The translations under genes and the position numbers were made by a program. Positions 380 to 62,359 of a DNA stretch of 64,000 nt are shown here, piece by piece; the stretch's first letter is position 1; each line of letters opens with the position of its first letter. The DNA is taken from the NCBI GenBank assembly GCA_963726745.1, contig CAVSDR010000005.1:1-64000 (forward strand). The letters run 5' to 3'. Below the pieces are notes generated by a model. It was not told where the DNA came from, did no database searches, and saw nothing but the letters and a program-made list of their open reading frames with translations. Source of the DNA: an uncultured Verrucomicrobiae bacterium (lineage in GTDB: Bacteria; Verrucomicrobiota; Verrucomicrobiia; Chthoniobacterales; UBA10450).

Positions 380-1030
380 CCGTGCCGGTTCACCAGGTAG
401 AGCAGCGGGTAGAGAAAAACCCAGACGACGTCGACGAAATGCCAGTAAAGGCCTAGCAAGTCGATCGGCTGGTCGTGATCGCGGAAGGAATCGAAGAGCC
501 AGGCGCGGAGCGCGAAGAAGCCGAGCAGTCCGATCCCGATTGTGACATGCAGCGCGTGCACCCCGGTCAGCAGCCAGTAGAGATAGAAGAACATCTCGGC
601 GTGGCGCGGATCGTTGCCGGCAAATTGGAAACTGCTGCCCCGGCAGGAGGTGCTCATGGATTTCGTGGGCATACTCCACGCCCTTGATCGCGAGGAAAGC
701 GATGCCTAACGAGGCCGTCACCAGGAGGAGCAAGCCGAGCAGCCCACGACGATTCTGTTGCGCCGCGCGCACCGCAAAGGCCATGACCGCGCTGCTCACG
801 AGCAGCACCGCGGTATTGACCGATCCGAATGCAACCAGCGTATGCCGGCTCGCTTCCGCGAAGGCCTCGGGATAGGAAATCCGGTAGACGGTGTAACCGA
901 GAAACATTCCGCCAAAAAAGAGGACCTCGGTCGCGAGGAAAATCCACATCCCCATGGTCGAGGCTTCGCGCTGTTGCGCGGCATCGTCGAACTGATGCTC
1001 GACCGGTCCGAGGGTGGTCGCTTCAGGCAT
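376..1030 (-). CDS. coxC: cytochrome c oxidase subunit III (frameshift near 640)
   Basis: GMWIFLATEVLFFGG in one frame, continued by LTGVHALHV and GLYWHFVDVVW in another. Confidence 0.9.
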
Positions 1031-2680
1031 GCGCTGGCTCCTTTGCCTCCTCGGCCGCGGCGTCGTATTCGTAGGGTCCCTCGGTCACAACCGGTGTGAG
1101 CTCAAAATTATCCTTCGGCGGCGGGGAGGAGGTGGTCCATTCCAGCCCCGTCGCATTCCAGGGATTCGGGCCCGAAATTTTGCCGTAGCGCCATGACCAG
1201 AGCAGATAGGTCAGCGGTAAAAGGTAACCGAGTGCGAGGATCGACGCGCCGGCGGTAGACAGCACATTGAGCACTTGGAATTCCGGCGCGTAGACGTGGT
1301 AACGCCGCGGCATTCCCAGATAGCCGAGGATGAACTGCGGGAAGAAGGTCAGGTTAAAGCCGGCGAAAATTGTCAGCGCGGAAAGTTTCGCCAGCCATTC
1401 CGGGATAGAGCCGCCCGCTGATTTTCGGCCACCAGAAATGGAGGCGCGCCGAGGTAGGCCATGACCATGCCGCCGACCATGATGTAATGGAAATGCGCGA
1501 TCACGAAGTAGGTGTCGTGCACATGCACATCCACCGCGAGCGCCGCGAGGAAGAGCCCGGTCAGCCCGCCGATCATGAAGAGACCGATAAAACCGAGCGC
1601 GTAGAGCATCGGCGTCTGAAAACGGATCGAGCCCTTGTAGAGGGTCGCGGTCCAGTTGAAGACCTTGATCGCCGACGGGACCGAAACCAGGAAGCTGAGG
1701 ACGGAGAAAATCATCCCCGCGTAGATCGACTGGCTGCTGACGAACATGTGGTGTCCCCAGACGAGGAAACCGAAGACCGCGATGGCCACGCTCGAGCCAG
1801 CGATGAACTTGTAGCCAAAGATTTTCTTGCGCGCGAAACAGGTGATCAGCTCGCTGACCACCCCCATGCCCGGGAGGATCATGATGTAGACCGCCGGGTG
1901 CGAGTAGAACCAGAAGAGATGCTGGAAGAGCAGCGGGTCGCCGCCTAACGAGGGATTGAAAATGCCCACGCCGAAGGCCCGCTCGAGGGCCATGAGCGTA
2001 AGGGTGATCGCCAGCACTGGCGTCGCCAGGACCATGATGATGCTGGTGGTGTAGAGCGACCAAACGAAGAGCGGGAGCCGCATCCAGGTCATCCCCGGCG
2101 CGCGCATCTTGTGCGTGGTCACGATGAAGTTCAGCCCGGTGGCGATGGAGCTAAAGCCGGCGATGAAAATGCCGGTCGCCATCGCGATCACGTGGCCATT
2201 CGCGTAGGTGCTGCTGTAAGGCGTGTAGAAGGTCCAGCCGGTATCGACCCCGCCGGAGACGATGGCGAAAAGCGCGAAGGCGCCGCCGAACATGAAAAGA
2301 TACCAGCTCGCCAGGTTCAGCTTGGGGAAGGCGACATCGCGCGCGCCAATCATCAGCGGCAGGAGAAAATTTCCCAGCACCGTCGGGATCGACGGGATCA
2401 GGAAAAACCAGACCATGACCACGCCGTGGATCGTGAAAAGGCGGTTGTAAGTCGACGAGGTCACGAGGTCGCCCTGCGGCGTCAGCAACTCCAGCCGCAT
2501 GAGCGTGGCCGCCGCGCCGCCGATCAGGAAAAAGAAGGTGATCGAGACCATGTAGAGCAGCGCGATCCGCTTGTGGTCGGTGGTGAAGAACCACGAGCGC
2601 AGAGTGACCTGCTCGTTCAGGTAAGTGCGGCGCTCGCGCGCGACCGGTTGCGGCTGCGCCTGCGGGGTGGCCGCGATCAT
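1023..2680 (-). CDS. coxA: cytochrome c oxidase subunit I, type A (frameshifts near 1400-1445)
   Basis: [43 protein letters not shown] motifs. Confidence 0.95.
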
Positions 2681-3628
2681 GGCTGCGCCTCCAGCTTGCT
2701 GCCTAACGATTTCAAATAGGCGATGATCGCATTCAACTCTTCCTCCGAGATCTGCCCCTGGTAGGTCGGCATGACCGGCTCGTAGCCGGCGGCAATCTGT
2801 TTGTTAGGCAGCAAGATGGAGTCGTGCAGGTATTGCTCGTCCGCGGTCACCAGGGTTCCGTCGGAGAGCGGCACTTGGCGCCCAAAAATCCCGTCCAGCA
2901 AAGGCGCGCGCACGGTCGCGTTTGGCGCATGGCAGCCGCTGCAGCCGCGGGCGTGGAAAGGCGCGTGCGCCTTCGCCGATGAGCGACTCCGCCGGCGGTT
3001 GGCCCGCGAGCCAGCGCGCTTGTTCCGCCGGTTCCTGCACGTAGATCGTGCCGACCATTTTCGAGTGATCGGTCCCGCAGTATTGCGCGCAGAAAAGGTG
3101 ATACTTTCCCGGCTTCGTGGGCGTGAACCACTCGGTGGTGTAACGCTCCGGGAGCACATCCTGTTTGTTCCGGAAACCGGGGATGAAGAAGTCGTGGATC
3201 ACATCCTGCGAGATCATGATCAGCTTCACCGGCTGGCCCACGAGCAGGTGAAGTTCGTTGATCTCGCGGCGGCCATCCGGGTGCTGGATCTTCCACATCC
3301 ATTGCTTGCCCACGAGGTAGATTTCGCTCGCGTTCGCCGGCGGGCGCGACATCCCGAAGAAGACGTTCGCGGCCCAGAAGAAGATGCCGAGAAAGAGGAG
3401 CAGCGGCACGATTGTCCAGGTGAGCTCGAAGGGCAGCGTCGAGCGTTTAGCCAGCACTCTGTTCGCCTTCGACCCGCGCCGATAACGCACGCAAAAGAAG
3501 AGCGCCACCGCCACCACGAGCAGCGCAACCACCGAGCAGAGCGCGAGCAGGGCGAAGAAGATCGCGTCGACCGCGGGCGCGTGGTTCGAGGCCGACGGCG
3601 GAAAGAGCGAGGTGAAAAAGGTGCGCAT
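2677..3628 (-). CDS. coxB: cytochrome c oxidase subunit II with C-terminal cytochrome c domain, caa3 type (frameshift near 2960)
   Basis: DVIHDF and [12 protein letters not shown]uA motif; downstream frame carries the CSGCH heme site and MPTYQGQ. Confidence 0.92.
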
Positions 3629-3633
3629 GGAAG

Positions 3634-4847: not shown

Positions 4848-5964
4848 CGGGCGTTTCCTCCAGGAGTTCGCGCGCGACCAGCGGTCCGTGCCGCAAAAAA
4901 TGCAGGAAAGCGGCCGCCCAGAATCCGCCGAGCGCGAGAAAGAGCGTGAGATCGAGCCAGTGCACGCGGAAGCCCGCCGGCGTGAAGGTGGGCGCGACCA
5001 GCCAAAAGCTGTGGAGGACATTAGCCGACAAGATGAGCGCGCAGATAAAGAGCAGGCGCTGCCGGTTTCTCTTGGCTGCGCGCGAGAGCAGCAGGAAAAA
5101 CGGCAGGAGGAATTCCGCCGCCATCAGGAGGACGGCAAACGTCTTCCAGCCGCCGCGGCTGCGGTCGAGATACCAGCCGATTTCGCGCGGCAAATTACCC
5201 GACCAGATGATGAGGAATTGCGAGAAAGTGACGTAGATCCAGAAGATCACGAAAGCCAGGAGCAGGCTCCCGAGATCGTTAAAAACCTTCAACGGGATGC
5301 GGTCGCCTAACGAGCGGTCGCGCGCGGCGAGCGCCAGCATCCCGGTGAGAAGCGCGAGCGCGCCGAGGAAATGCCCGGCCATGAAGATGACCACGAAAAT
5401 GGTCGAGAACCATTCCGGATCGAGCGACATCGCCCAGTCCGTCGAGGCGAAGTTCATGCAGAGCACGTAGGCGATCAGCCCGCCGGCGCTGAGCACGGTC
5501 AGGCGCGTGGATACTTCCCGCGGATCGTTTTGCGCGAAAGCCAGGCGGCGCAGAAAAACTGCCAGCAGGCTTAGGAGCCCGAGGTAAAAGAGCGAGCGCA
5601 CGGTGAAGAACGGGACCGTGAGCCATTGCGCCCGGTGATGGTAGGCGCTGCCTTCGAAGCCGTGCGTCCAGGAATAGATGTCGCCCAGCCCGTGGAGCAC
5701 AGGGAGGAAGAGCAGCGCCATCAGCGGGACGGTCCCGATGGCCGCGAGCGCGAATGGGCGCAGGGCCAGGCCCCACATTCCGCCGGTGAGGAATTGCATC
5801 ATCAGGATGACGAGCGCGCCAAACGAGAGCCCGCTCCAGAAGAGCCACGCGAAGAGGTAAGCGTGGAAGAACTCCGCGCGGCTAACGAACAGTCCAACGA
5901 ACGAAAAGGCGGCCGCGATCGTGCCCAGCAGGAGGAACGGCATGCGCCAGCGGCTGAAGTTCAT
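4840..5964 (-). CDS. actF: alternative complex III subunit F
   Basis: Polytopic membrane protein with DWAMSLDPEWFSTIF and FSQFLIIWSGNLPRE. Confidence 0.88.
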   Translation of the reverse strand: MNFSRWRMPFLLLGTIAAAFSFVGLFVSRAEFFHAYLFAWLFWSGLSFGALVILMMQFLTGGMWGLALRPFALAAIGTVPLMALLFLPVLHGLGDIYSWTHGFEGSAYHHRAQWLTVPFFTVRSLFYLGLLSLLAVFLRRLAFAQNDPREVSTRLTVLSAGGLIAYVLCMNFASTDWAMSLDPEWFSTIFVVIFMAGHFLGALALLTGMLALAARDRSLGDRIPLKVFNDLGSLLLAFVIFWIYVTFSQFLIIWSGNLPREIGWYLDRSRGGWKTFAVLLMAAEFLLPFFLLLSRAAKRNRQRLLFICALILSANVLHSFWLVAPTFTPAGFRVHWLDLTLFLALGGFWAAAFLHFLRHGPLVARELLEETPDA

Positions 5965-6530: not shown

Positions 6531-7060
6531 CGTTCGACCTCCGTGACGCGCTCCGCGCCTAACGAGTGCAGGAACAGCCGCACCTCCTCCGCCTGGAAAA
6601 CGTGGTCGCGCGCCTCGATGCAAAGAAAGAAGCGCGTCTGGCTGGCCAGCTGGAACCCGGGCGCGTTGAAGACCGGGTGATGGAGCCGCGGCAGGCCGTT
6701 GCGGAAGAGCATCCCGAAGACGCCGGCAAGAGCCGCGAAGAGCACCGTGAGCTCGAAGGTGATCGGGACAAACGCGGGCCAACTATGCTCCGGGCGGCCG
6801 CCGACATTCAGTGGGTAATCGATCACCGCGGAATACCACTGCATCCCGTAGGCCGTGACCGCGCCGATGATTCCGCCCAGCAAAACCACCAGCGGCATCC
6901 GGGTTTTCCGAAAGCCGATCGCCTCGGCTACGCCCTCGACCGCGTAGGGCGAATAGGCGTCCATTTGGCGATAGCCGGCAGCGTGGGCCGCGCGCGCGGC
7001 GTGGAGCAATTGCTCCGGCTCGCGGAATTCCGCCATGATTCCGTGCAGCGGCGCGCTCAT
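6527..7060 (-). CDS. actD: alternative complex III subunit D (DUF3341)
   Basis: GIMAEF...DAYSPY...YPLNVGGRP...PITFELTVL. Confidence 0.9.
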   Translation of the reverse strand: MSAPLHGIMAEFREPEQLLHAARAAHAAGYRQMDAYSPYAVEGVAEAIGFRKTRMPLVVLLGGIIGAVTAYGMQWYSAVIDYPLNVGGRPEHSWPAFVPITFELTVLFAALAGVFGMLFRNGLPRLHHPVFNAPGFQLASQTRFFLCIEARDHVFQAEEVRLFLHSLGAERVTEVER

Positions 7061-8412
7061 TTCCGGCCCTCCTTTTTCTCGTGCACCAGCTCGCGCATTT
7101 CGCTGATGGAAATAGCCGGCAGGATGCGCAGGAAGAGAAAGAGCAGCGTGAGGAAAAGTCCGAAGGAGCCGATGAAGGTGAGCCAATCCCAGCGCGTCCC
7201 GTGGAACATTCCCCAGGAGGACGGGAGAAAATCGCGATGCAGGCTGGTGACCACGATGACGTAGCGCTCGGTCCACATGCCGACATTGACCAGGAGCGAG
7301 ATGACGAAGAGCGCGGGGATGCTCGTGCGGACTCGCCGGAACCAAAGCGCCTGCGGCGTGAGGACATTGCAGGCGATCAGGATCCAGTAGGCCGGCCAAT
7401 ACGGGCCGAGCATGCGATTGACCGCGAGGTAGATCTCGAAGCGGTCATCGCTATACCAGGCCATGAAGTTCTCCGTGAGGTAACCGTGCGCGACCATCAG
7501 CCCGGTCGCGAGCATGACCTTGGCGGCATTTTCCAGATGCCGCAGGGTAATGAAATCCTGCAGCCCGTAGACGTGGCGGATGGGAATCGCGAGCGTGAGC
7601 ACCATCGCGAAGCCGGAGAAGATCGCGCCGGCGACGAAGTAGGGCGGGAAGATGGTCGAGTGCCAGCCGGGGACGATGGCGATGGCAAAATCCAGCGAGA
7701 CCACGCTGTGGACCGAAAGGACCAGCGGCGTGGCCAGCCCCGCGAGGAGGAGATAGACCACGTGAAAGCGTTTCCAATGTCTCGCCGAACCGCGCCAGCC
7801 TAACGAGAGGATGCCGTAGAGCCGCGCGATCGTCCGGTTGCCCGCGCGATCGCGCATCGTGGCCACGTCCGGGAGCAGCCCGACATACCAAAACAGGAGC
7901 GAGACCACCAGGTAAGTCGTGACCGCAAAGACATCCCAGACGAGCGCGCTGCGCCATTGCGGCCAGAGGCCCATGGTATTCGGATACGGCAGGAGCCAGT
8001 AGAAGACCCACGGCCGCCCGAGATGGAGCAGCGGAAAGAGCCCGGCGCAGGCGACCGCGAAAAGCGTCATCGCCTCGGCGAAGCGATTGATCGAGGTGCG
8101 CCAATCCTGATGCAGGAGCAGCAGGATCGCGGAAATGAAAGTGCCTGCGTGGCCGATGCCGATCCACCAGACGAAATTGGTGATCGCGAAGCCCCAGGCC
8201 ACCGGCTGGTTCACCCCCCAGATGCCCACGCCCTTGAGCAGGAGCCACGCGATCGTGAAGAGGAACAGCATCAGCAGCGCGAAGGCCGCGGCGAAGCCCA
8301 GGATCCAGCCGCGCCGCAGCGGCCGCTGGAGGACCGCGCCTGCGATCTTCGCCGTCACCGAGGCGTTGTCGTAGCCCGGCGCAACGATCGGTTCCTGCAC
8401 TTCGGCGCTCAT
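7057..8412 (-). CDS. actC: alternative complex III NrfD-family quinol-binding subunit C
   Basis: NFVWWIGIGHAGT, INRFAEAMT, HLGRPW, SVHSVVSLDF, WHSTIFPPYF. Confidence 0.95.
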   Translation of the reverse strand: MSAEVQEPIVAPGYDNASVTAKIAGAVLQRPLRRGWILGFAAAFALLMLFLFTIAWLLLKGVGIWGVNQPVAWGFAITNFVWWIGIGHAGTFISAILLLLHQDWRTSINRFAEAMTLFAVACAGLFPLLHLGRPWVFYWLLPYPNTMGLWPQWRSALVWDVFAVTTYLVVSLLFWYVGLLPDVATMRDRAGNRTIARLYGILSLGWRGSARHWKRFHVVYLLLAGLATPLVLSVHSVVSLDFAIAIVPGWHSTIFPPYFVAGAIFSGFAMVLTLAIPIRHVYGLQDFITLRHLENAAKVMLATGLMVAHGYLTENFMAWYSDDRFEIYLAVNRMLGPYWPAYWILIACNVLTPQALWFRRVRTSIPALFVISLLVNVGMWTERYVIVVTSLHRDFLPSSWGMFHGTRWDWLTFIGSFGLFLTLLFLFLRILPAISISEMRELVHEKKEGRK

Positions 8413-11150
8413 GACGCGGCGAGCTCCGGGTTCAGGTTCACCAGCTTCGCGAGGTAGGTGGTGCGCGGACGGGTGTTCAATTCCGCGAGCAGACCGTAGT
8501 TCAAGGGCGAGGCGCGCAGCCGGGCCACGCGGCTGCCGGCGTCATTCAAGTCGCCAAAGACGATCGCATCCGCCGGGCAGGCTTGGGCGCACGCGGGCAC
8601 GATCGCGCCGTCGGCGATCTCGCTGTTTGTTTTGCGCGCCTCGATTTTGACCGCGTTGATCCGCTGGATGCAATAGGTGCACTTCTCCATCACCCCGCGG
8701 CTGCGCACCGAGACGTCCGGGTTGCGCATCAGCTTGCGTGTGGCGGGCTGCTCGAATTGGTTCGCGTCGTATTCGAGGAAATTGAAGCGCCGCACTTTGT
8801 AGGGGCAGTTGTTCGAGCAATAACGCGTGCCGATGCAGCGGTTGTAGACCATCTGGTTAAGGCCTTCGCTGCTGTGGACGGTGGCCGCGACCGGGCAGAC
8901 GAGCTCGCAGGGCGCGTTCTCGCAATGCATGCACGGCACCGGCTGGTGCAGCACCCGGTCCCTTTCGAGGTAGCGATCGACGCGGATCCAATGCATCTCC
9001 CGCCCGCGCGCGACCTGTTCCCGGCCGACCACCGGGATGTTGTTTTCCGCCTGGCAGGCGATCGTGCAAACGCCGCAGCCGATGCAGGTCTGGAGATCGA
9101 TCACCATCCCCCAGGCGTGCCCGGCGTAAGCGACCTTTGGATAAAGCGTTTCCTCCGCGGTCGGCGGCGGTTCGCCCGCGCGCGCCGGCGCGGCCGGATT
9201 GGCCGAAAATTGCGCCAGCGTCCCCGTGCGGACCAGGTCGCGTCCGTGCATGTCCCAGTGCTCCTGCGTGGTCACGAGCTCGTGCCGCGCGCCGGTCTTC
9301 GCCAGCTCGAGCCCGGCCCCACCCCAGAGTGCGTCGCTCGTGCGCAAGGCCGCGGCGTTGAAGCCGACGCCATTCCCCACGCTCCCGGCCGCGGTCCGTC
9401 CGTAGCCCAGGTGAATCGTCACCGAGTCGTCCGCTTGCCCAGGCAGAATCCAGACCGGTGCGCGCAACGAGCGGCCGCGGAGATTCAGCTCCACCACATC
9501 GCCGCTTTCCAACGCGCGCTCTCGCGCGAGCGCCGGACTAACGAGCGCCGCGTTATCCCAGACGATCTGCGTCAAAGGGTCGGGTAATTCCTGCAGCCAG
9601 GCGTTGTTCGCGAAGCGGCCGTCGAGCAGGCGCGGGCTCGGGCGGATGAGCAAGTGGAGGGGATTTCCGAGTTGCGAATTCTGAGTTTCGATCGGCGACG
9701 AAACGGTCGGCGGCAGGCCAGGTTCTGCGACCACGCCGTCGTGCACCGCTTGGCGCCACCATTGCTCGAAGTCGGGCGCGGAATGCTGCGCCTGCCAATG
9801 GGCGCGCACGATTTCGTAAGCGCTGGCCGGCGGTTCCTCGAGCAAAACAGACAGCAACTCGTGCGGCGAACGCCCGGCGAAAAGCGGCTCGATCATCGGC
9901 TGCTGGATCGTGGCCGTGCCGTCGAAAGCGCGGGCATCGCCCCAGGTCTCGAGCGCGTGCGCCTGCGGCAGGTGCCAATGGCAAAGCGCCGCGGTCTCGT
10001 CCCGGTAAAGGCCGAGATGGACGCTCCGCGGCAGCTTTGGCAGCAGCTCGGCGAACTGAAAATCTGCCGGCGCGTTGTGCACGGGATTGCCGCCGAGAAC
10101 GAGGAGCGTCTCGACCGTGCCCGCCCGCATCTCGCTGGCTAATTCCGCGAAGTCGCGCGCGGCTGTCGGCGTTTCGCCGGGATACTCGACCGTCTGCCCG
10201 ACGTTGCCTAACGACTCGTTAAGTTGTCGCGCGAGCGCCTGCACCTCGGGGGCTTCGTAGTCACCTGCGACCACCAGGGAACGCCCGGCGTGGGCCCGGA
10301 GGTCGCGCGCGATCGGGTGATCGCCCGCGAGGAGGTGGCGCGCAAAATCAGCCAGCGCCCTGGCCCCGACGACGAAACGATGATCCGCCATCGTCCCGGT
10401 GAGCGTAGGCGTGGACTCGGCCGCGTAGAGCCGATTCATCCCGCGCTCCGGCCGGCGGCGGGCGGCGAATTGCCGGGCATAGCGCGGCGCGGCCGGGCCG
10501 GTGGCGAGGAAATCCGCGCCCAGGCTCAGGATCACTTCCGCGCGGTCGAAATGGTAAATTGCGCGCGGCGCGTTCCCCGCCAGCGGATCGAAGACGTGCC
10601 ACTTCGCCGCCGGAAATTTAGCCAGCACTTTGGCGATCTGCGCGAGGAGCGTGGGCGAAGTCTCGTGCTCGGTGAGAAGGCGGAGCCCGGCGCCGCCATT
10701 CGCTTTCCATTGCCGGAGCGCGCCCGCGAGCTCGCCGAGAAAGTCATTCCAAGTCGCGACCGACCCGCGATGCCACGCCGCCTGCGAACGCTCGGGATCG
10801 TAGAGCGCGAGCAGCTCCGCCTGCAGGAAAACATCGGTCGCGCCGAGGCTCGCGGGATGTTGCGGGTTGCCCTCGATCTTCGTCGGCCGGCCTTCGTGCG
10901 TTTCCACAAGCACGCCGCGGGCATAGCCGCCGAGGGTAAGGGCGGTCGCGTAATAGAGGGGCTTCCCGGGAATGATCTCCTCCGGCTGGACGCGGTAGGG
11001 GACGATCGTCTCCCGCGGATTGCGGGTGCAACCGGCGGTCGCGAGCGCAACCGATGCGCCCATGAGCTGGAGGAAGCGCCGGCGGCTCAACTCATGGGGC
11101 CAATCGCCGGCGCCGAGCGGGAATTCCTCCGGTGTCCTTAGCGATGACAT
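8409..11150 (-). CDS. actB: alternative complex III subunit B (molybdopterin-like domain fused to Fe-S domain)
   Basis: Tat motif [63 protein letters not shown]. Confidence 0.95.
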
Positions 11151-20474: not shown

Positions 20475-20480
20475 GGCTCG

Positions 20481-34209: not shown

Positions 34210-34370
34210 AAGCTGGAAAAATCCTGCCCGGCCCGCTGGCCGGATGCCTGCCTGCCTGCAGTCTTACGGGAAAGCGGCCGGCGGCACAAGGTCAACCGCA
34301 CTCGTTAGACTGGGCGCCGGCTTGACCCACCTGCACCGGTCGATAGGCTGCACGCGGAAAGGAGCACCGA

Positions 34371-34809: not shown

Positions 34810-34830
34810 CCGCTTTCGCCTAACGAACGG

Positions 34831-50827: not shown

Positions 50828-52072
50828 GTGTTCCTCCGCTTCGTGAGCGCCCTCGGTCTCGTCTCCATGCTGGCGGCCGCCTGGGCGCTCTCGCGCGATC
50901 GGAAAAACTTTCCCTGGCGCACGGTCCTCTGGGGGCTCGCACTGCAAGCAAGCTTCGCCGTCTTCATCCTGAAAACATCCGTCGGCCTCGCGGTCTTCGT
51001 GGCCGCGCAGCGTTTGATCGACAAGCTGAACGTCTTTGCGCTCGAAGGCGCGCGCATGGTCTTCGGTCCGCTGGCCGATGGCGATGCTTTGAAGGGCGCC
51101 TTCGGTCCGGCCAATGGCTACGTCTTCGCCGTTTTCATCTCGGCCACGATCATCTTCATCTCCGCGCTCTCCGCGCTGCTCTATCACTGGGGCGTGCTGC
51201 AGCGCGTGGTCCACGCGATGGCCTGGGTCATGCGCAAAGCGATGCGCACCAGCGGGAGCGAAAGCCTGGGCGCCGCGAGCAATATTTTCCTCGGCCAAAC
51301 CGAAGCCGCACTCCTCATTCGCCCCTACATCCCGCGCATGACCATGAGCGAGCTGATGGCGCTCATGACCACCGGCATGGCCACGATCGCGAGCGGCGTC
51401 ATGATCGTCTACGCGCAGCTCGGGATCGACGCCGGGCACTTGTTAACTGCGTGTGTCCTGAGCGCGCCGGCCGGTCTCTTGATCGCGAAGATCATGTTTC
51501 CGGAAACCGAAGTGAGCGAGACGCGCGGGAGCGCCTCCGCCGAAGTCCCGCGCACCACCGTGAACAGCATCGACGCGCTCTGCCGCGGCGCCGGCGAAGG
51601 CATCGCGCTCGCGATTAATGTCATCGGCATGCTCATCGCCTTCGTCGCGGTGGTCGCGCTGGCTAATTACCTTTTCACGACCGCGCAGCGCCTCGGCGGC
51701 GTCGCGCAGCCGTTCACCATCCAGCACGCGCTCGGCTGGCTCAACTGGCCCTTCGCCCTCCTGCTCGGCATCCCGCCTAACGACTGCCAGCTCGTCGGCC
51801 AGGTGCTCGGCGAGCGCATCGTGCTCAATGAATTCGTCGGCTATCTCTCGCTCGCGCAGCAGAAGGCGCAGCTCGCCCCGCGCAGCTTCACCCTCGCGAC
51901 CTACGCGCTCTGCGGCTTCGCAAATTTCTCCAGCATCGCCATCCAGATCGGCGGCATCGGCGCGCTCGCGCCCGAGCGTCGCAGCGACCTCGCCCGCCTC
52001 GGCCTGCGCGCCATGATCGGCGGCTTGCTCGCCTGCTACCTCACCGCGGCGCTCGTGGGCGTGCTGCTTTAG
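50828..52072 (+). CDS. concentrative nucleoside transporter (CNT/NupC family)
   Basis: NIFLGQTEA, GMATIAS, NEFVGY, YALCGFANFSSIAIQIGG. Confidence 0.93.
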   Translation: MFLRFVSALGLVSMLAAAWALSRDRKNFPWRTVLWGLALQASFAVFILKTSVGLAVFVAAQRLIDKLNVFALEGARMVFGPLADGDALKGAFGPANGYVFAVFISATIIFISALSALLYHWGVLQRVVHAMAWVMRKAMRTSGSESLGAASNIFLGQTEAALLIRPYIPRMTMSELMALMTTGMATIASGVMIVYAQLGIDAGHLLTACVLSAPAGLLIAKIMFPETEVSETRGSASAEVPRTTVNSIDALCRGAGEGIALAINVIGMLIAFVAVVALANYLFTTAQRLGGVAQPFTIQHALGWLNWPFALLLGIPPNDCQLVGQVLGERIVLNEFVGYLSLAQQKAQLAPRSFTLATYALCGFANFSSIAIQIGGIGALAPERRSDLARLGLRAMIGGLLACYLTAALVGVLL

Positions 52073-53553: not shown

Positions 53554-56370
53554 ATGGAAGCGGCGCAGGCATTGTCGGAGGCGGGTTGCGACGTTCGCTT
53601 CGACAACCTCACGCGCCAGCTCTACGCGACCGATGCTTCGGTCTACCAGATCGTGCCGCAAGCGGTCGCCTTCCCGCGCGGCGCGCAGGAAGCGAGCCGC
53701 GATCATTCGTGCCGCCGCCGACGCGAACATTCCCATCACGCCGCGCGGTGCCGGCAGCGGGCTGGCCGGGGGCGCGATTGGCGATGGCCTGGTGGTGGAG
53801 TTCTCGCGGCACAACCGCGCGATCTCGGAGTTGAACCTGGAGCGACAGCAGCGTGCGCTGCGGCGCAGGCGTGGTCCTGGATCAACTAAACGCCTTCCTC
53901 CGGCCGCACGGCTTCGCCTTCGGTCCCGATGTGGCCACAAGCTCGCGCGCGACCATCGGCGGGATGATCGCGAACAACAGCTCCGGCGCGCGCGTGCCGG
54001 TTTACGGCACGACTGCGGATCACGTGCGCTCGCTCGAACTCGTCCTCGCCGATGGCACCGTGCGACAAACAGACAGCAACCTCTTCGCCGCGGAGAAGGC
54101 GCGCTTCGCGCAGATGATCCAGGCGGAGGCGGCGGCGATCGACGAGTGGCTCCCGCCCGGTTTGCAAAAACGCTGGCCGGGCTACGGAATCGATCGCTTC
54201 CTGCGCCAGGCGCCGACGATCGAGAATTTGCTCGCCGGCAGCGAAGGGACGCTGGCGGCGATTTGTTCCGCGGAGTTAAAGATCGTGCCGCTCCCGCGCG
54301 AGAAAGGTCTCGGTTTGCTCTTCTTCGCCTCGGTCGCGGAAGCGATGCAAGCCACGGTCGACCTGCTCGACCTCCACCCGGCGGCGATCGAGCACATCGA
54401 CCGGGTGCTCTTCGACCAGACGCGCGGGCAGCTCAATTTCCAGGCTGCGCGCGACCTGCTCGAGCTCGATACCAAGCCGTGCGAGGCCATTCTCCTGGTC
54501 GAGTTCTACGACCAAGTAGCCGACAAATTGCACTCGTTAGCCGCGCGCCGGCTCGGCTTGCGCACGACCATTTGCCGGACAAACGCCGAGATCAATCTCG
54601 TCCTCGGAATGCGCAAGGCGGGGCTGACCCTGCTCACCGGGATGATCGGCTCGGCCAAGCCGGTGACCTGCATCGAGGACACCGCGGTGCGGCCGGAACA
54701 GCTCCCGGCTTACGTCGCCGGCTTGCAGGGAATCATGCAGCCGCGCGGCCTGGAAGTTTGCTACTACGGGCATGCCGCGACCGGGCTGCTCCATGTGCGA
54801 CCGGTGCTCGATCTGCACAATGCGGCCGACCTCCAGACTTTCCGTGAAGTCTCAGACGAGGTCGCGGCGCTGGTGCGGCAATTCAAAGGCTCGCTCGCAG
54901 CGGAGCATGGCGTCGGCATCGCGCGCACCGAATACATGCCCGGCCAACTGGGCGAGCGGCTCCTGCGTTTAACCAGCGAGATCAAGGCGACGTTCGATCC
55001 GCAGAATCTCTTCAACCCCGGCAAAATCATCCCGGACGGCCGCTACCGGCTCGACAACGCTCCTGCGCACCAGCAGCTATCGCGAGCACGGCTTGCCCTT
55101 CGAGCCGCGGCTGGCCTTCGCCTTCAAAGACCGGTCGTTCATCGGCAATCTCGAGCAGTGCAACGGCTGCGGCGGTTGCCGGAAAGATGCGCCCACGATG
55201 TGCCCGACGTTCGTCGCTACCGGCGAGGAATACATGTCGACCCGCGGCCGCGCGAATGCGATCCGCGCGGCGCTCGAGCTGCGCACCCGAGGCGACGATC
55301 CGCTGCGCGCGCAAGAGCTCGAAGAAGCGCTCGGCAATTGTCTCTCCTGCAAAGCCTGCACGGTCGAGTGCCCGTCGAACGTGAACCTCGCCCTGCTCAA
55401 GGCCGAGCTGCAATACGCCCGCATTCGCCGCGACGGCCTCTCGCTCCGCGCGCGAATGCTGAGCGCGGTCGACTTGTTAGGCCGGCTGGGCACACTTACG
55501 CCGGGGCTGGCGAACTGGGCGCTCGAGTTCGCGCCGCTGCGCGCGCTCATGGCGAAAGTGCTGGGTATTTCTGCGCAGCGCCCCTTGCCGCATTACGCGC
55601 AGGAGCGGTTCGATCGTTGGTTTAGCCAGCAACCTCAGCGCGCCGGAGCGCGCGGCCGCGTGATCCTCTGGGACGACACTTTCGTGCGCTACCACGAGCC
55701 GCACATCGGCATCGCCGCGGTGAGCGTGCTCGAAGCGCTTGGCTTCGAGGTCTCGTTAGCCAAAGGCCGGCGTTGCTGCGGGCGGCCGGCCTTCAGCCAG
55801 GGAAATCTCGATGCCGCCAGCCGGATGGGGCAGCACAATCTCGATCTCCTGCGCGGCGGCGAGGAACCGATCCTGTTCCTCGAGCCGTCGTGCTATTCGA
55901 TGTTTGCCGAGGATTACCGCGAGCTGAAGCTGGAAGGCTTCGAGGCGGTCGCGGCGCGTTCGTTTCTCTTCGAAAAGTTCGTCGCCGATTTACTCGAGCG
56001 CGAGCCGGCGGCGCTCGCCTTCCGGGAAACAACCGGCAAGATCGCGATTCACGCGCATTGCCATGCGAAGTCGCTGATGAAACCCGGCTTCATGGCGCGG
56101 CTCGCCGGCCGCCTGCCGGGGCGGGAAGTGCAATTGCTCGACACCGGCTGCTGCGGCATGGCAGGCGCGTTCGGCGCGCTCGACGCGAAGTATCGGCTCT
56201 CGGTGCAGGTGGCCGCGCCGCTGGTGGAGAAGATCGCCGCGCAACCGGCGGGCGCGACGATTGTCGCCTCCGGGACGAGCTGCCGGCATCAGATCGAGCA
56301 TCTGACGCCGGCGAAGCCAAAGCACATGGCCGAACTCTTGGCCGACGCGCTTCCGACGACGACTCGTTAG
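53554..56370 (+). CDS. FAD-binding and Fe-S-binding oxidoreductase (YdiJ/GlcD-GlcF fusion type; frameshifts near 53697, 53855, 55060)
   Basis: YATDASVY, RGAGSGLAG, TIGGMIANN, EHGVG, CNGCGGC, CLSCKACTVECP, CCG motifs. Confidence 0.88.
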
Positions 56371-57338
56371 GCCGGGCCGCCCATTGCGCCGAGCGCCCGG
56401 CGCGCCGTCCCGGCCTGGAGGTATTTGCCCCAGCTGAGGTTGTCCTGCCCGGGGACATGCGCGCGCGCCTTGCGCAGGCACATCTCGCTGACTGCTTCCA
56501 CGACCCAGTCGAAGTTCTCCTGGCCGACGCTCGTGACTTCCGCATCGGGCGCGGGGTTGCAGAAATCGATCGCCACCGGGACGCCATCGCGGATGGCGAA
56601 CTCGACCGTGTTCAAGTCGTAGCCTAAATATTGGTTCAATTGCAGGACGCCCCAATGAACCTTGTCGAGGATCTCCTTGGGCGCCTGCCAGTCGGTCTGG
56701 TAGCGAAGGTGATACGGGTTCCGCGGCTCGTAATTCATGATCTTCACGTGCCGCTGATCGATGCAGTAGCAGCGGAAGTACATGTCGAACTTCACTTCCT
56801 CCTGCAGCATCATCACGAGTTGGCCGGTCTCGGCGTAGGCGCGGAAGAATTCCTCGGAGTTGTGCAGCCGGTAGACGTTTTTCCAACCGCCGCCGGCGAA
56901 GGGCTTGAAGAACGCGGGCCAGCCGACGTATTGGAAAATGCCTTCCCAATCGAGCGGGTAAGCGAGGTTGCGGAAGGAGCCGTCGGAGGTGTCGGGCGGC
57001 AGCTGGTGCGAAGGCAGGAGGACGGTCTTCGGCACCGCGACGTCGATCTTGGTTGCGAGCGCGTTGTTGAAGAACTTCTCGTCCGCGCTCCACCAGAAAG
57101 GATTATTGACCACCGCGCAGCCAGCGAGCGCTTCGTTCTTGAGCCAGGCGCGGTAGAAGGGAACGTCCTGCGAGATGCGGTCGACGACCACGTCGTAGCC
57201 GGTCGGCTCTCCCTGGATCACCTTATCGATGCGGACGAATTCGGCCTGCACTTCGCCCCCGCCTTTCTCGTTGATCCGCTGGACGAGCGCAGGCGGGAAG
57301 CTGTTTTCTTGACCGAAGAGGATGCCGACTTTTTTCAT
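56367..57338 (-). CDS. ATP-grasp fold protein (RimK/glutathione-synthase-like)
   Basis: DRISQDVPFYR, NNPFWWSADEKF, FFKPFAGGGWKNV, LQE, EFAI..AIDFCNPAPD. Confidence 0.85.
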   Translation of the reverse strand: MKKVGILFGQENSFPPALVQRINEKGGGEVQAEFVRIDKVIQGEPTGYDVVVDRISQDVPFYRAWLKNEALAGCAVVNNPFWWSADEKFFNNALATKIDVAVPKTVLLPSHQLPPDTSDGSFRNLAYPLDWEGIFQYVGWPAFFKPFAGGGWKNVYRLHNSEEFFRAYAETGQLVMMLQEEVKFDMYFRCYCIDQRHVKIMNYEPRNPYHLRYQTDWQAPKEILDKVHWGVLQLNQYLGYDLNTVEFAIRDGVPVAIDFCNPAPDAEVTSVGQENFDWVVEAVSEMCLRKARAHVPGQDNLSWGKYLQAGTARRALGAMGGPA

Positions 57339-58231: not shown

Positions 58232-59101
58232 ATGTCCGAGCACACCCTCACAGGAAACATCCAAAGCCATCCGCAATTCGAGTCCCGCATTTTGGGGAAC
58301 CGACGCGATGTGCTCGTTTATTTGCCGCCCGGCTACCGGCGCACGCGCAACCGGCGTTACCCGGTGCTTTACCTGCACGATGGGCAAAATGTGTTCGACG
58401 CTGCGACGGCTTTTGGCGGGAACGAGTGGGGCGTGGACGAGACCGCGCAGCGCCTGATTTCGGAGAAGCTGGCCGAACCGGTGATCATCGTCGCGGTGGC
58501 CAACGCGGGCGAAGATCGCATCCATGAATATGCGCCCACAAAGGGACGGATCGAGGAAGGAAAACGGAAGCGGAGCAAAGGACTGCTGCGGAAGTATGGG
58601 CAATTTTTGGTCGAAGAACTAAAGCCGTTCATCGATGGGAACTACCGCACGCTCCCGGAAGCGGAGCACACCGGCCTGGGCGGTTCCTCGCTTGGCGGGC
58701 TGGCCACACTTTCGCTCGGGCTTTGGTTCCCGCAGGTTTTCCGCCGGCTCCTGGTGATGTCGCCGTCTATTTGGTGGGACGACGCGGTGCTGCTGAAGCT
58801 GGTCGACAAAGTGAACGAAGATGCGCGTCCGCCCCTGAAGATTTGGCTGGATACCGGCACGGCCGAGCCGGGTTGGGAACGCGCGCAGACCTTGCGCGAT
58901 GCCTTGCTCGAGAAGGGCTGGCGGCTCTACGACGACCTGCAGTACACCGAGGACGAAGGCGCCGGACATACCGAAGCTGCCTGGGGCCACCGGATCGATG
59001 CCGCTCTCCGCTTTCTTTATCCACCAGCGCCGGCGGTCCTGCCGGAAGGCACCCGTCGCCGGCAACCGAAGATCCTCCGGCGCGAGCCGGTCGCGGCCTA
59101 A
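58232..59101 (+). CDS. putative esterase (alpha/beta hydrolase, IroE/Fes-like)
   Basis: VYLPPGY, YPVLYLHDGQNVFD, GGSSLGG, GHTEAAW. Confidence 0.88.
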   Translation: MSEHTLTGNIQSHPQFESRILGNRRDVLVYLPPGYRRTRNRRYPVLYLHDGQNVFDAATAFGGNEWGVDETAQRLISEKLAEPVIIVAVANAGEDRIHEYAPTKGRIEEGKRKRSKGLLRKYGQFLVEELKPFIDGNYRTLPEAEHTGLGGSSLGGLATLSLGLWFPQVFRRLLVMSPSIWWDDAVLLKLVDKVNEDARPPLKIWLDTGTAEPGWERAQTLRDALLEKGWRLYDDLQYTEDEGAGHTEAAWGHRIDAALRFLYPPAPAVLPEGTRRRQPKILRREPVAA

Positions 59102-59104
59102 CGA

Positions 59105-59527
59105 ATGCCGGCCATCCCGCACGAGCTGCGCCTGCGCGTAGCCGCGGGAGAGATCGACGGCCAAGGGCACGTGAACAACGTGGTCTACCTGCGCTGGGTG
59201 CAGGAAGTGGCGGTGGCGCATTGGGAAGCGCTCGCCCCGGTTGATGCGCTCGGGCAAATCGGCTGGGTCGCGCGCCGGCACGAGATCGATTACCACGCGC
59301 CGGCGCTTCTGGGCGATGAATTGATCGTCCGGACCTGGGTCGGCCAGGTCGAGGGCCTGACTTTCGAGCGGCACACCGAGATCCGTCACGCCGGCACCGA
59401 GAAGTTGCTGGCAAAAACGCGCACGCTCTGGATCCCGATCGATCCCGCGACCGGCAAGCCGAAACGCGTCAGCCGGGAAGTCCGCCGGCTGTTTGCGATT
59501 GCCGCGGGCGAAGCGACCGTTCGTTAG
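59105..59527 (+). CDS. acyl-CoA thioesterase (4HBT/YbgC hotdog fold)
   Basis: IDGQGHVNNVVYLRW. Confidence 0.9.
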   Translation: MPAIPHELRLRVAAGEIDGQGHVNNVVYLRWVQEVAVAHWEALAPVDALGQIGWVARRHEIDYHAPALLGDELIVRTWVGQVEGLTFERHTEIRHAGTEKLLAKTRTLWIPIDPATGKPKRVSREVRRLFAIAAGEATVR

Positions 59528-60498
59528 ACCGCCGCGGCTGGCAGCTCGGAAAAGTTGCCCAGCTTGCGAAACTTCTCGTAGCGCTTCTTGAGCAACTCGT
59601 CGGTCGAGAGCGCGCTGAAGCGATCGAGATTGCGCCGGAGAGCGCTCCCGAGATGGGCCGCCGCGAGGTCGTGATCGCGATGCGCGCCGCCTTCCGGCTC
59701 CTTCACCACTTCGTCGACCACGCCGAGCTTCATCAAGTCATCGGCCGTGAGCTTGAGTGCTTCTGCGGCCTCGGGCGCGTGGCGGCGATCCTTCCAAAGG
59801 ATGGCGGAGCAGGCTTCCGGACTGATCACGGAATAGTAAGCATTCTCCAGGATCATCACGCGGTCGGCGACGCCGATGCCGAGAGCGCCGCCGGACCCGC
59901 CTTCACCGATGACCACGGCTACGATCGGGACCTGCAGGTTCATCATTTCGCGGAGATTCACCGCAATCGCTTCGGCGATGTGGCGCTCCTCCGAGCCGAT
60001 GCCGGGATACGCGCCAGGAGTGTCGATCAGCGCCACCACCGGGAGCTTGAACTTCTCCGCCATTTGCATGACGCGCAGGGCCTTGCGGTACCCTTCCGGG
60101 TAGGCGCAGCCGAAATTACGCAGCACATTCTCCTTGGTGTCGCGGCCCTTTTGCTGGGAAACGACCACGCAGCGATAAGCCCCGATGGTCGCCAGGCCGC
60201 ACGGCATCGCGCGGTCATCGCCAAAGACGCGATCGCCGTGGAGCTCGACCCAGTCGGTGAAGCAGCGGCTGAGGTAATCGAGCGCGAAGGGCCGCTGCAC
60301 ATGGCGGGCAATCTGGACGCGCTGCCAGGCGGTGAGATTCTCGTAAATCTCGCGCCGGGTCTCGCGAATTTTCGCTTCCATGGACTCCACCTCGCTCTCG
60401 AAATCGAGCGCGTGTTCGTCGGAGTGATTCTTCAAGTCCTGCAACCGGCGCTGCAATTCCAGAATCGGCTTTTCGAAATCGAGCGGCTGAACGTCCAT
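59524..60498 (-). CDS. accA: acetyl-CoA carboxylase carboxyltransferase alpha subunit
   Basis: LDFEKPI, ELHGDR, PEGYRKA, DTPGAYPG, GEGGSGGA, YSVISPE. Confidence 0.97.
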   Translation of the reverse strand: MDVQPLDFEKPILELQRRLQDLKNHSDEHALDFESEVESMEAKIRETRREIYENLTAWQRVQIARHVQRPFALDYLSRCFTDWVELHGDRVFGDDRAMPCGLATIGAYRCVVVSQQKGRDTKENVLRNFGCAYPEGYRKALRVMQMAEKFKLPVVALIDTPGAYPGIGSEERHIAEAIAVNLREMMNLQVPIVAVVIGEGGSGGALGIGVADRVMILENAYYSVISPEACSAILWKDRRHAPEAAEALKLTADDLMKLGVVDEVVKEPEGGAHRDHDLAAAHLGSALRRNLDRFSALSTDELLKKRYEKFRKLGNFSELPAAAV

Positions 60499-60501
60499 TC
60501 T

Positions 60502-61344
60502 CTAGTCGGTAATGGTGACAGGCGTCTTCGTATTGACAAGGCCGCTTAGCTCCGCGACCTCGGCCGGCGCCAGCGCCATCCCGGTGGGCGGCGGCGGGAC
60601 CCCGCCCGGCTGCGGCGTGCCCGCGCTGGGCTCAGCGTAAAGGATGTGCCCCGGTGTCGTTAGCCGGATCCAGCGGGTGCTCCCCTGGTATTCCTTGGTC
60701 CCGAAGCCGACCCGTTTGCCATCCTGCCAAGCCATGACCTCGGCGACCTTCGCGCTGATCTTCGCGGGGCTGCGCGGCGGGAGCTTGAGCGCGCGAATCT
60801 TGTAGCGCTTAAAGAAGAGGCCGCGATCGAGCAGGATCACCTCGTGCGCCTTCCGCTGGATCACGAGCGCAAAGTCCGGGTGCGAAACAAGCAGCCGGTC
60901 GCCGATGTGAAGCATGGTTCCGCGGAGATTGTTCATGCGCATGATCAACTCCGGCGTGGTCTTGGTTTTCAGCGCCACCTTGGCGATCACGTCGCCTTTT
61001 TTGACGACATATTCCTGCTTCTCCGGGCTGGGATACTTCGAAAGCAGAATCTCCATGTTTACCTCGCCCAGGAGGTCTTTGGCGGCGTCCGCGTTCGGGC
61101 TGTTGGGATACTTTTGCAGGAAGCGCGTGAGCGCGGCGCGCGCCTCGGCCAGCTTGTGCTCCTGGCGCAATTTCGCCGCCTCCTCAAACTCGGGCAGGCT
61201 CACATCGGCCCGCGGCGTTTCCGGGAGTTCGCCGCGTTGCTCCGCGCGCACCGCCATCTCCGGCTTCACGATGATGTGATAACCGAAAAAAGCCGCGCTG
61301 CCGAAAATGGCCACCGCGAGCAGGAAAGCGAAGAGCCACTTCAT
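60502..61344 (-). CDS. LysM-domain membrane-anchored protein
   Basis: N-terminal TM, TPR-like helix pair, YVVKKGDVIAKVA...NNL..LHIGDRL LysM. Confidence 0.8.
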   Translation of the reverse strand: MKWLFAFLLAVAIFGSAAFFGYHIIVKPEMAVRAEQRGELPETPRADVSLPEFEEAAKLRQEHKLAEARAALTRFLQKYPNSPNADAAKDLLGEVNMEILLSKYPSPEKQEYVVKKGDVIAKVALKTKTTPELIMRMNNLRGTMLHIGDRLLVSHPDFALVIQRKAHEVILLDRGLFFKRYKIRALKLPPRSPAKISAKVAEVMAWQDGKRVGFGTKEYQGSTRWIRLTTPGHILYAEPSAGTPQPGGVPPPPTGMALAPAEVAELSGLVNTKTPVTITD

Positions 61345-61396
61345 GCGTGAGGAAAGCTACGCGGGCACGCGGCGGCGCGCTGCCGGGCGCACGTTT

Positions 61397-61846
61397 TCAG
61401 ACCTGCTTCCGCGGTGCGGAAAAGAAGCTGTGCCAGAAACGATGTTGCTGGCCGGCATCCTGGTTCGTCCAGGTGTAGTGGCAGTCTTCGCAGTAAAATT
61501 CCTTCGGGAAAATGCCCGCCTGCAGAAGAACCATCGCCAGACCGGGGACGAAAGGGAATTTGCGCGCCAGCTGCGGGTATTGGATGCGCGGCGAGTGGCA
61601 CTGCGGGCAGCGGATGGCGGAGCCGATCTCCGGATCGCTCTTTTCCCACTCGACCATGAGCTGTTGGGTCTTTTCGAAATCTTTCTCTTCCACCATCACC
61701 TTGGCGTTCGCCTGCGGCTCCGAGAGCGTGGTCATCCGCTGCATGCCCGCCTCGTTGTGGATGTCGGCCTTGACCCCTTTTTCCTGGAGCCGCTGCTTCA
61801 GGTGCTTCGCTTTCGCCGCTTCGTTAAACGTTGCAATCGTGACCAT
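61397..61846 (-). CDS. DUF2007-like signal-transducing protein with Zn-ribbon
   Basis: MVTIATFNEAAKAKHLKQRLQEKGV; CPQC and CEDC. Confidence 0.7.
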   Translation of the reverse strand: MVTIATFNEAAKAKHLKQRLQEKGVKADIHNEAGMQRMTTLSEPQANAKVMVEEKDFEKTQQLMVEWEKSDPEIGSAIRCPQCHSPRIQYPQLARKFPFVPGLAMVLLQAGIFPKEFYCEDCHYTWTNQDAGQQHRFWHSFFSAPRKQV

Positions 61847-61924
61847 AAACTCAGTTGTCCCTTTCGCTGCTCCTCTGCCGAAGATCAAACATCAACCAGC
61901 AGCGCAGCGCAAGAACCCGCGCGG

Positions 61925-62359
61925 CTAACGATACGCCGCCGGCGGGAACCATTGGTAGAGCATGAAATAAACGATCACGCCCGTGACCGAGACGTAGAGC
62001 CAGATCGGCATGGCCCAACGCCCGACGCGCCGATGTTTATCCCACCGGCGGCGCAGCGCCGGGAGCAAGGTCACGATGACCAGCGGCGGGATGGTGAAGG
62101 CCAGGAGCACGTGCGTAATCAGGATCGTGAAATAAATCGGCCGCACGATTCCCGGGGCAGTGAAGCGGGTGGATCCGTGGTGATAATGGTAAACCAGGTA
62201 GCCCGTCAGAAAAATAGCCGACGAGATCAGCGCCACGATCATGCAGGCGATGTGCTGCCGCCAATACCCGCGCCGGGTGAGGATCCAGCCCGCGGAAATA
62301 AACAGCGTGCTGATCGCGTTCATGGAAGCGTTCACGGCCGGCAAGTCGGAAATTGTCAT
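61925..62359 (-). CDS. DUF420 family membrane protein
   Basis: LPAVNA, HIACM, YLVYH, THVLLA, HRRVGRWAMPIWLYVSVTG. Confidence 0.9.
   Translation of the reverse strand: MTISDLPAVNASMNAISTLFISAGWILTRRGYWRQHIACMIVALISSAIFLTGYLVYHYHHGSTRFTAPGIVRPIYFTILITHVLLAFTIPPLVIVTLLPALRRRWDKHRRVGRWAMPIWLYVSVTGVIVYFMLYQWFPPAAYR

Follow-up and report, generated by a model that had tools for sequence, protein, structure and literature searches.

The recombination hotspot Chi and the polar words KOPS (FtsK-orienting polar sequences) and AIMS (architecture-imparting sequences) are short, asymmetric, over-represented chromosomal words that are read by DNA-processing machines and are co-oriented with replication. 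The DNA uptake sequences (DUS) of Neisseriaceae and the uptake signal sequences (USS) of Pasteurellaceae have a minor pilin as receptor (ComP, PF16732), with ComN predicted in Pasteurellaceae. In the account of 10.1101/2025.10.24.684340, sequence-specific self-DNA tags are given for two bacterial families only, both host-associated Proteobacteria, and about half of the known DUS and USS lie in terminators, often as inverted pairs. Here we describe a word, M1 (GCCTAACGAG, reverse complement CTCGTTAGGC; its core word is also written CGTTAGGC; invariant core CTAACGA / TCGTTAG), in the genome of an uncultured bacterium of the Chthoniobacterales (Verrucomicrobiota). It was noticed in a 64,000-nt stretch of that genome (assembly GCA_963726745.1, contig CAVSDR010000005.1; C5:1-64000 of the source genome, G000), which is called the window below. 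M1 is a real, double-stranded DNA-level signal that is set through codon choice rather than being a coding artefact. Its letters are those of an integron recombination box, and it may serve as a self tag.

Like DUS and USS, M1 is a non-palindromic word of 9-10 nt whose copy number runs from the hundreds into the thousands and which lies on both strands, in genes and in permissive reading frames; like them, as they are outlined in 10.1101/2025.10.24.684340, it is enriched in core DNA, missing from recently acquired DNA, and apparently conserved at the family level with lineage variation. With the cyanobacterial word HIP1 (highly iterated palindrome 1; GCGATCGC) it shares hyper-abundance in genes and replacement or loss in some lineages, but HIP1 is palindromic and, as described in PMC4390886, co-occurs with cognate methyltransferases, whereas M1 is asymmetric and no methyltransferase tracks it. 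Unlike Chi and KOPS/AIMS, M1 shows no replication orientation. The earlier note on this stretch had placed the word among unpolarised signals of the DUS, USS or HIP1 type rather than with Chi or KOPS, and this placement holds for density, tolerance of reading frame, strand symmetry, restriction to a lineage and depletion from accessory DNA.

Abundance and coding context

All 24 exact copies of M1 that had been listed for the window were recovered, 13 on the plus and 11 on the minus strand (Table 1), against a mean of 0.12 in dinucleotide-preserving shuffles, of which 0 of 100 reached 24. Each of the 22 near-copies that had been named is a true one-mismatch copy. One-mismatch copies number 28 (4.2 expected from 20 Markov-1 simulations) and two-mismatch copies 47 (58 expected), so that enrichment is confined to the one-mismatch class. 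Exact and one-mismatch copies together make 52 sites, in keeping with the density of one site per ~1.2 kb given in the earlier note. Its estimate of ~66% G+C was slightly high (64% genome-wide, 62-68% per 4-kb bin of the window), and its ~100-fold enrichment was right in direction but too low as a figure, with values of ~200-fold in the window, 134-fold in the genome and ~79-fold against a codon shuffle.

The word is not confined to the window. In the whole assembly (3,406,779 bp in 7 contigs, completeness 94.7%) there are 820 copies across 3.4 Mb (445 + 375 on the two strands), where 6.1 are expected under a Markov-3 model, and M1 is the most frequent 10-mer of the genome. The core CTAACGA occurs 2025 times (194 expected), or about once per 1.7 kb. 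Single-base variants of this core are mostly at or below expectation, and its seven positions tolerate almost no change, a sharp specificity like that of a reader, while the flanks are graded: before the core G>>C>A and then C>>G>A>T, after it G>C~A>>T. Flanking DNA is informative for only ~1 base on each side, which rules out a longer repeat or a mobile element.

According to the crude gene calls made in this analysis, which underlie all frame and codon results, 352 of the 820 copies are read as xxC-TCG-TTA-GGC (Ser-Leu-Gly), 134 as Pro-Asn-Glu, 101 as Leu-Thr and 46 as Leu-Val-Arg; another 114 are intergenic and 73 lie across a gene end. When synonymous codons were shuffled so that proteins and per-gene codon usage were kept, 639 in-gene copies stood against 8.1 (~79-fold; 20 shuffles, maxima 7 and 8), and a coding or codon artefact is thereby ruled out. 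The comparison with a protein- and codon-preserving null that the earlier note proposed thus leaves the word far above expectation. Ser-Leu-Gly tripeptides are spelled TCGTTAGGC in 449 of 767 cases, using the rare TTA codon, and these spellings account for 449 of the 2890 TTA codons. The Ser-Leu-Gly and Pro-Asn-Glu tripeptides are themselves 1.6 and 2.5 times over-represented. The word also skews the codon-usage and k-mer statistics of the genomes that carry it.

Distribution along the genome

The lack of strand skew seen in the window extends to the whole genome, both for the 10-mer (445:375) and for the form G-N-CTAACGA, counted in 100-kb bins (849:827). In each of the 33 bins the density is close to 50 sites per 100 kb. 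The skew of the motif, taken bin by bin, is correlated neither with GC skew (r = -0.03) nor appreciably with gene-strand skew (-0.18), the GC skew of G000 being weak and its origin and terminus unmapped, and contigs as long as 1.18 and 1.04 Mb show no polarity, whatever the scale.

Whatever their orientation, sites that lie close together are rarer than expected, and at spacings of 400-1000 bp the direct and attC-like inverted orientations show a slight excess. The attC-like inverted arrangement is the most depleted class, at 0.42 of random for spacings of 40-160 bp and at 0.60 for 160-400 bp, where the other orientations stand at 0.81-0.89. Terminator hairpins were considered and rejected: 10 of 25 close pairs are inverted, which is no excess, and the pair test shows depletion.

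Fifteen gaps exceed 10 kb (5 expected), and their G+C content is low. Density falls to 0-1.6 sites per 10 kb below 60% G+C, compared with 6.2 at 64-66%, and is correlated with local G+C (r = 0.49). The two longest gaps are an O-antigen-type cluster and a region of exosortase, PEP-CTERM, AbiEii and autotransporter genes. The word is enriched in core DNA and scarce in low-G+C accessory islands, and in practice it offers a strong signal by which such genomes can be binned and foreign DNA within them recognised.

Phylogenetic range and history of sites

The named relatives of G000 are metagenome-assembled genomes (MAGs) of uncultured Chthoniobacterales and other Verrucomicrobiota. The genome tallies given here take in some that are flagged as unpublished (G001, G008, G226, G202, G046, G053, G042, G169); no claim depends on those alone. 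Among congeners, 21 of 24 carry the 10-mer at no less than 3.5 times the reversed-word control (70 to 1549 copies), and G002, G003 and G005 carry it at less than twice the control. In sister families 0 of 16 genomes are enriched. Within the Chthoniobacterales family, a draw of 201 genomes showed the 9-mer strongly raised in several of 36 genera; these, as read by eye from the table, include g41, g34 and g19, in which every genome is raised (21, 6 and 5, respectively), and the 9-mer is at background in some genera, e.g. g22 and g50. Across Verrucomicrobiota (301 genomes, 70 families) only G000 and G066 exceed the control, both from this same family; of the other 298, again read by eye, none exceeds it and two tie. 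The survey of relatives suggested in the earlier note thus finds a word that spans many genera of one Chthoniobacterales family with graded abundance. Its standing as undescribed holds as well: no published description of it was found in the literature searched.

Sites are shared by position. In BLAST-aligned orthologous DNA, a sample biased to conserved genes, the core sites of G000 are intact in 15/25 cases in G013, 9/13 in G154, 12/17 in G024 and 4/6 in G078, compared with 15-20% for arbitrary 7-mers. In the reverse comparison, a smaller share of the relatives' sites is kept in G000 (15/41, 9/23, 12/27 and 4/7). The closest genome, G002 (79% identical), retains 0 of 7 core sites of G000, as against 26% of arbitrary 7-mers, and carries near-misses such as TCGCTCGGC in their place. 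Judged by one protein and by DNA identity, the nearest neighbours of G000 are genomes poorer in the word (G015, G018 and G002). Conservation of sites in rich relatives together with erasure in G002 points to a word that is old, maintained in rich lineages, eroding in the clade of G000 and erased in G002.

No replacement word was found in the part of G002 that was sampled (254 kb out of 3.7 Mb), nor in G015, G018, G019 and G021, each sampled over 73-100 kb. The G002 sample does show weak over-representation of TTGCCGTCC (34 vs 3.3) and AATGCGGAAT (12 vs 0.44), and GTAGGAA occurs in it within a short tandem repeat.

Correspondence with integron recombination sites

The R' box of attC and the core of attI have the consensus GTTRRRY. 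The integron integrase IntI scores above cut-off in 15 of 34 congeners and in 59 of 201 genomes of the class, and attC sites lie beside intI in G154, G018, G005, G023 and G021. These sites are of one family, mostly ~122-132 bp long (two in G154 are shorter), with a left box YCTAAC, usually followed by CAK, and a right box (T)CTCGTTAGRY; the integrase-proximal site of G154 is an exact copy of the 10-mer. Arrays of attC were found under a loose rule, and two stricter detectors gave none. Under that rule G000 holds an array at C6:736,572-744,891 with 14-16 attC sites of ~122 bp and short cassettes. No integrase was found near this array, where tblastn gave Xer-like matches only, and we take it to be what is termed a CALIN (cluster of attC sites lacking an integron integrase). 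A satellite mini-array at C4:149,616-151,067, in a gene-poor stretch of 60% G+C, has one clear attC; ahead of it lie two further TCTCGTTAGGY boxes, spaced as cassettes would be.

In the right boxes of 27 attC sites the sequence is C(.93)T(1.0)C(.93)G|TTAG. At 2189 solo CGTTAG sites, in which CGTTAG was fixed by the search seed, it is C(.62)T(.92)CG|TTAG followed by G(.71)C(.84). The two sets agree from -4 to +4, and solo sites favour the GC variant at +5/+6. M1 thus reads, letter for letter and including three flank bases, as the right-hand (R') crossover box and flank, CTCG|TTAGGC, of the attC/attI sites of its family, a link that the earlier note lacked. Its G|TT also fits attG, the double-stranded genomic site at which IntI inserts cassettes, with G|WT at the cleavage point as reported in 10.1101/2022.09.11.507474.

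The resemblance ends with the box. A complete attC is an imperfect inverted repeat (R''-L''...L'-R') of ~60-140 nt that forms a hairpin, unlike more than 99% of M1 copies, which lack both a left box and a partner for a hairpin and are found in ordinary conserved genes. Only 20 left-box/right-box pairs occur in G000, 14-16 of them in the one array and one a clear singleton, so that about 20 of the 2025 cores belong to attC-like pairs. No amplification is seen for CTAACCA, the left-box version (90 copies vs 2025). A survey of 30 IntI loci in other families yielded 10 attC-like pairs in 7 loci; the right box has C before GTT in 9 of the 10 and TC in 6, and the CTC flank occurs only in the surveyed locus from the word-carrying Chthoniobacterales family. 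Genomes of those other families that have (T)C-GTTAGGC boxes hold the 8-mer below control, and the box is therefore older and wider than the genome-wide word.

Nor does the abundance of M1 depend on the integrase. G005 has an intact IntI and the same type of attC, with 60 copies of the word against a control of 32, and no IntI was detected in G000 (820 copies) or G024 (1549 copies), absence from a MAG being weak evidence. IntI was accordingly rejected as the maintainer of the word: present in 15 of 34 congeners, it bears no relation to word abundance and is neither necessary nor sufficient, and the reader is therefore not IntI alone. The flanks of IntI genes, taken alone, were uninformative. 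Pseudogenes of IntI were seen in G002 (split), G014 (three stops), and G066 and G550 (one stop each).

A second, private word

G000 carries a second word, M2, of the bipartite form SA-N4-GYY-G-N-CTAA, in 1538 copies. Within genes it occurs 829 times, compared with 35 under the codon-preserving null; as a signal at the DNA level it keeps its bipartite form between genes and in every frame, and the strands are balanced (752:716). In the cross-genome count M2 stands at 894 in G000 against 19 for the control, and in 40 other genomes a weak increase is confined to G011, G015, G018 and G017, so that it is essentially private to G000. Its sites are nearly all new: the relative also has M2 in 4 of 49 site comparisons. 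The M1-free gaps hold 46 M2 sites (58 expected), a milder depletion than that of M1. TTAG[GC]C is common to both words.

Candidate readers

Gene content in G000 includes ComEC, DprA, a cluster running from pilM to the secretin, pilins and six PilT-family ATPases, and a cluster of pilin-like and DUF7305 genes adjoins ssb-dprA-topA. A DUF7305 paralogue of G000 (C3:585,515-586,939) has a single in-frame TAG, seen in at least seven genomes, with TAG-bearing orthologues in G227, G176, G154, G015, G001 and G002; this may reflect either a pair of genes that share a frame or read-through that has been conserved.

DNA methyltransferases were inventoried with a motif prefilter, by which an enzyme may have been overlooked. 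The gene of the N6_N4 enzyme belongs to the core, being present in 32 of 34 genomes and intact in the word-less G002 and G003. The C5 enzyme is sporadic (7 of 34 genomes), absent from several rich genomes and unrelated to the word. A decayed island contains fragments of two HsdM-like genes, with no HsdS among the 18 open reading frames (ORFs) scanned. Methylation, one of the roles suggested in the earlier note, is thus unsupported, as none of the four methyltransferase loci of G000 tracks the word. In the co-occurrence check that it proposed, comEC (present in G000), the pilin-like cluster and the methyltransferases do not follow the word.

A proposed self tag linked to cassette traffic, and its alternatives

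The reading that we favour, with a probability of roughly 40%, is that M1 acts as a self tag of the DUS/USS kind, maintained by a drive that is linked to recombination, with a tie to the traffic of integron cassettes. The word would be written into resident DNA by codon choice, at about one copy per 1.7 kb, and a DNA-handling protein engaged in natural transformation or recombination would prefer incoming fragments that bear it. Word-bearing alleles would then replace word-less ones by molecular drive, and foreign islands would lack the word. Sites would persist at orthologous positions for as long as the lineage keeps its reader, and loss of the reader would let ordinary codon pressure erase them, as may have happened in G002. 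Since the letters of the word are those of the family R'/attI box, the same preference would favour cassette-carrying DNA and feed the chromosomal integron. The universal box, which integrons in many phyla share, might in addition lead lineages that are unrelated to the same word. Natural transformation has been linked to cassette recruitment in PMC12614218; the drive, the tie to uptake and a reader separate from IntI are steps that we infer.

Several points weigh against this proposal. The earlier likeness to DUS and USS stands for the class traits listed above and fails in others: inverted pairs closer than 160 bp are at 0.20-0.54 of random, copies in intergenic DNA or at the boundaries of genes make up no more than 23%, unlike the terminator-rich DUS and USS, and neither a ComP-family receptor nor ComEA was found in G000, where the best match to ComP_DUS (PF16732) scored 21.9 bits, below the cut-off of 27.3, and two ComEA models gave nothing. 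ComEC is a poor correlate, being present in 33 of 34 genomes and intact in the word-less G002 and G003, and the DUF7305/pilin-like cluster, with close orthologues only in G015, G018, G002, G003 and G005, does not track the word either; no candidate for the reader therefore emerges. A second private word co-exists with M1, and we know of no genome with two such words among DUS or USS carriers. The word equals an integron recombination box, which an uptake role, itself putative, does not predict, so that coupling to cassettes is an added assumption. The statistics would suit any sequence-specific reader that confers a per-site advantage, and no data on uptake or transformation were found in the literature for the phylum Verrucomicrobiota.

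Identity with the integron box speaks for a different proposal, that solo words are sites read by IntI itself, as attG-like landing pads for cassettes or as decoys that titrate the enzyme. The word and the box agree at each position between -4 and +4 and in the variant GC at +5/+6, G|TT agrees with the attG cleavage consensus as given in 10.1101/2022.09.11.507474, integrons are common in congeners and in the class, and G000 has both the 14-16-cassette array and a satellite flanked by word-like boxes. The attC-like orientation is also the one most depleted among close pairs, and a missing intI in a MAG, being weak evidence, leaves the proposal standing. We nevertheless regard it as unlikely. 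G005 is IntI-positive and word-poor, G000 and G024 are rich with no IntI detected, and (T)C-GTTAGGC boxes are in use in other families, in whose genomes the 8-mer is nevertheless rarer than the control. Moreover, precise recombination makes no point substitutions and so offers no per-site drive, and landing pads within core genes should do harm. A word of the HIP1 kind, arising from a conversion bias linked to methylation or mismatch repair and needing no uptake reader, would account for the depletion of near-miss variants and for lineage-specific words with turnover (M1 family-wide, M2 private), and Elhai's model, as presented in PMC4390886, ties HIP words to cognate methyltransferases. M1 is not a palindrome, however, and none of the four methyltransferase loci of the motif-prefiltered inventory tracks it, which makes this origin improbable.

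We give similarly little credence to binding sites of a lineage-specific chromosome-organising or nucleoid protein, for which density rather than position would matter. An even spread over 33 bins, strand symmetry, the avoidance of close pairs and scarcity in recent DNA would all be expected of such sites, but selection on each would be very weak, and the observed sites override codon usage and are kept at 3-4 times background; the idea also leaves the match to the integron box unexplained, and whole clades (G002, G003, G005) live without the word. A replication-polar signal of the Chi or KOPS type shares with M1 that the word is short, over-represented and non-palindromic, and M2 contains GCTGG, the start of E. 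coli Chi. With no orientation bias in 100-kb bins, no polarity on contigs of ~1 Mb, and skew correlations of -0.03 and -0.18, this alternative was rejected and is close to refuted.

If the self-tag reading is true, the phenomenon extends to abundant uncultured soil bacteria of another phylum, and the letters of the word point to a link between cassette traffic and genome-wide sequence evolution that is not described in the integron literature searched. The fullest form of that reading is less probable: M1 would be a third independent bacterial self-DNA tag, taking its letters from the universal integron box and, by way of a DNA-handling protein with a preference for CTCG|TTAGGC, coupling transformation to cassette gain, the box having been stamped across the core genome by molecular drive, and G000 would have been caught in the act of changing its tag, with the old word eroding and a private one rising. 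Natural contrasts are offered by rich genomes (G013, G024, G154), eroding ones (G000, G015, G018) and those in which the word has been erased (G002, G003, G005).

Features of the window and other observations

The positions of both words in the window are collected in Table 1. The genes that surround them are ordinary and include a Mo/Fe-S respiratory complex, hypF, formate dehydrogenase and selB.

Table 1. Copies of M1, core-retaining variants and M2 sites in the 64,000-nt window.
Feature	Position	Strand	Match	Remark
M1 GCCTAACGAG	704..713	+	exact
M1	1943..1952	+	exact
M1	5305..5314	+	exact	also carries M2 left half (M2 start 5296)
M1	6557..6566	+	exact
M1	7798..7807	+	exact
M1	11207..11216	+	exact
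M1	17808..17817	+	exact
M1	18555..18564	+	exact
M1	23124..23133	+	exact
M1	31789..31798	+	exact
M1	39794..39803	+	exact	also M2 left half (M2 start 39785)
M1	49419..49428	+	exact
M1	50292..50301	+	exact
M1	15003..15012	-	exact	plus strand reads CTCGTTAGGC
M1	20477..20486	-	exact
M1	22347..22356	-	exact	within hypF
M1	28560..28569	-	exact
M1	31463..31472	-	exact	also M2 (start 31467)
M1	32327..32336	-	exact
M1	35963..35972	-	exact	same position in G013; near-miss in G002
M1	36913..36922	-	exact	inverted at same place in G013
M1	37368..37377	-	exact	within selB; same position in G013; TCGCTCGGC in G002
M1	42079..42088	-	exact	within formate dehydrogenase gene; same position in G013
M1	56363..56372	-	exact
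M1 variant	2701..2710	+		core CTAACGA intact
M1 variant	5880..5889	+		core CTAACGA intact
M1 variant	9536..9545	+		core CTAACGA intact
M1 variant	10206..10215	+		core CTAACGA intact
M1 variant	30419..30428	+		core CTAACGA intact
M1 variant	30567..30576	+		core CTAACGA intact
M1 variant	34818..34827	+		core CTAACGA intact
M1 variant	39046..39055	+		core CTAACGA intact
M1 variant	41308..41317	+		core CTAACGA intact
M1 variant	51775..51784	+		core CTAACGA intact
M1 variant	59096..59105	+		core CTAACGA intact
M1 variant	61923..61932	+		core CTAACGA intact
M1 variant	14473..14482	-		core TCGTTAG intact
M1 variant	16401..16410	-		core TCGTTAG intact
M1 variant	20791..20800	-		core TCGTTAG intact
M1 variant	24006..24015	-		core TCGTTAG intact
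M1 variant	25939..25948	-		core TCGTTAG intact
M1 variant	34301..34310	-		core TCGTTAG intact
M1 variant	54533..54542	-		core TCGTTAG intact
M1 variant	55752..55761	-		core TCGTTAG intact
M1 variant	59520..59529	-		core TCGTTAG intact
M1 variant	60656..60665	-		core TCGTTAG intact
M2 (15-mers, starts)	2692, 5296, 10128, 15465, 23478, 39785, 41233, 48910, 52926	+
M2 (15-mers, starts)	2804, 3447, 5021, 10618, 12520, 17662, 20320, 23494, 31467, 32207, 33381, 35967	-
M2 (15-mers, starts), continued	36947, 37690, 38896, 42083, 42485, 42620, 43814, 45485, 48080, 55622, 63406	-

The formate dehydrogenase alpha ORF of the window (40927-43596, minus strand) begins at profile position 203. Its N-terminal part is probably joined to it via a TGA selenocysteine codon, and selB lies nearby (37135-39051, plus strand).

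Elsewhere in G000, a decayed defence island occupies two contig ends (C4:~370,000-376,686 and C6:1-1,458) and contains a NERD nuclease, a split HsdM, a truncated DarT, DUF4379 zinc-finger proteins and an N6_Mtase/Eco57I-like fragment. The k-mer tables of the genome also reveal long tandem hexamer arrays, of GTTGGC (~142 overlapping 12-14-mers) and of GGAGTC (~56).

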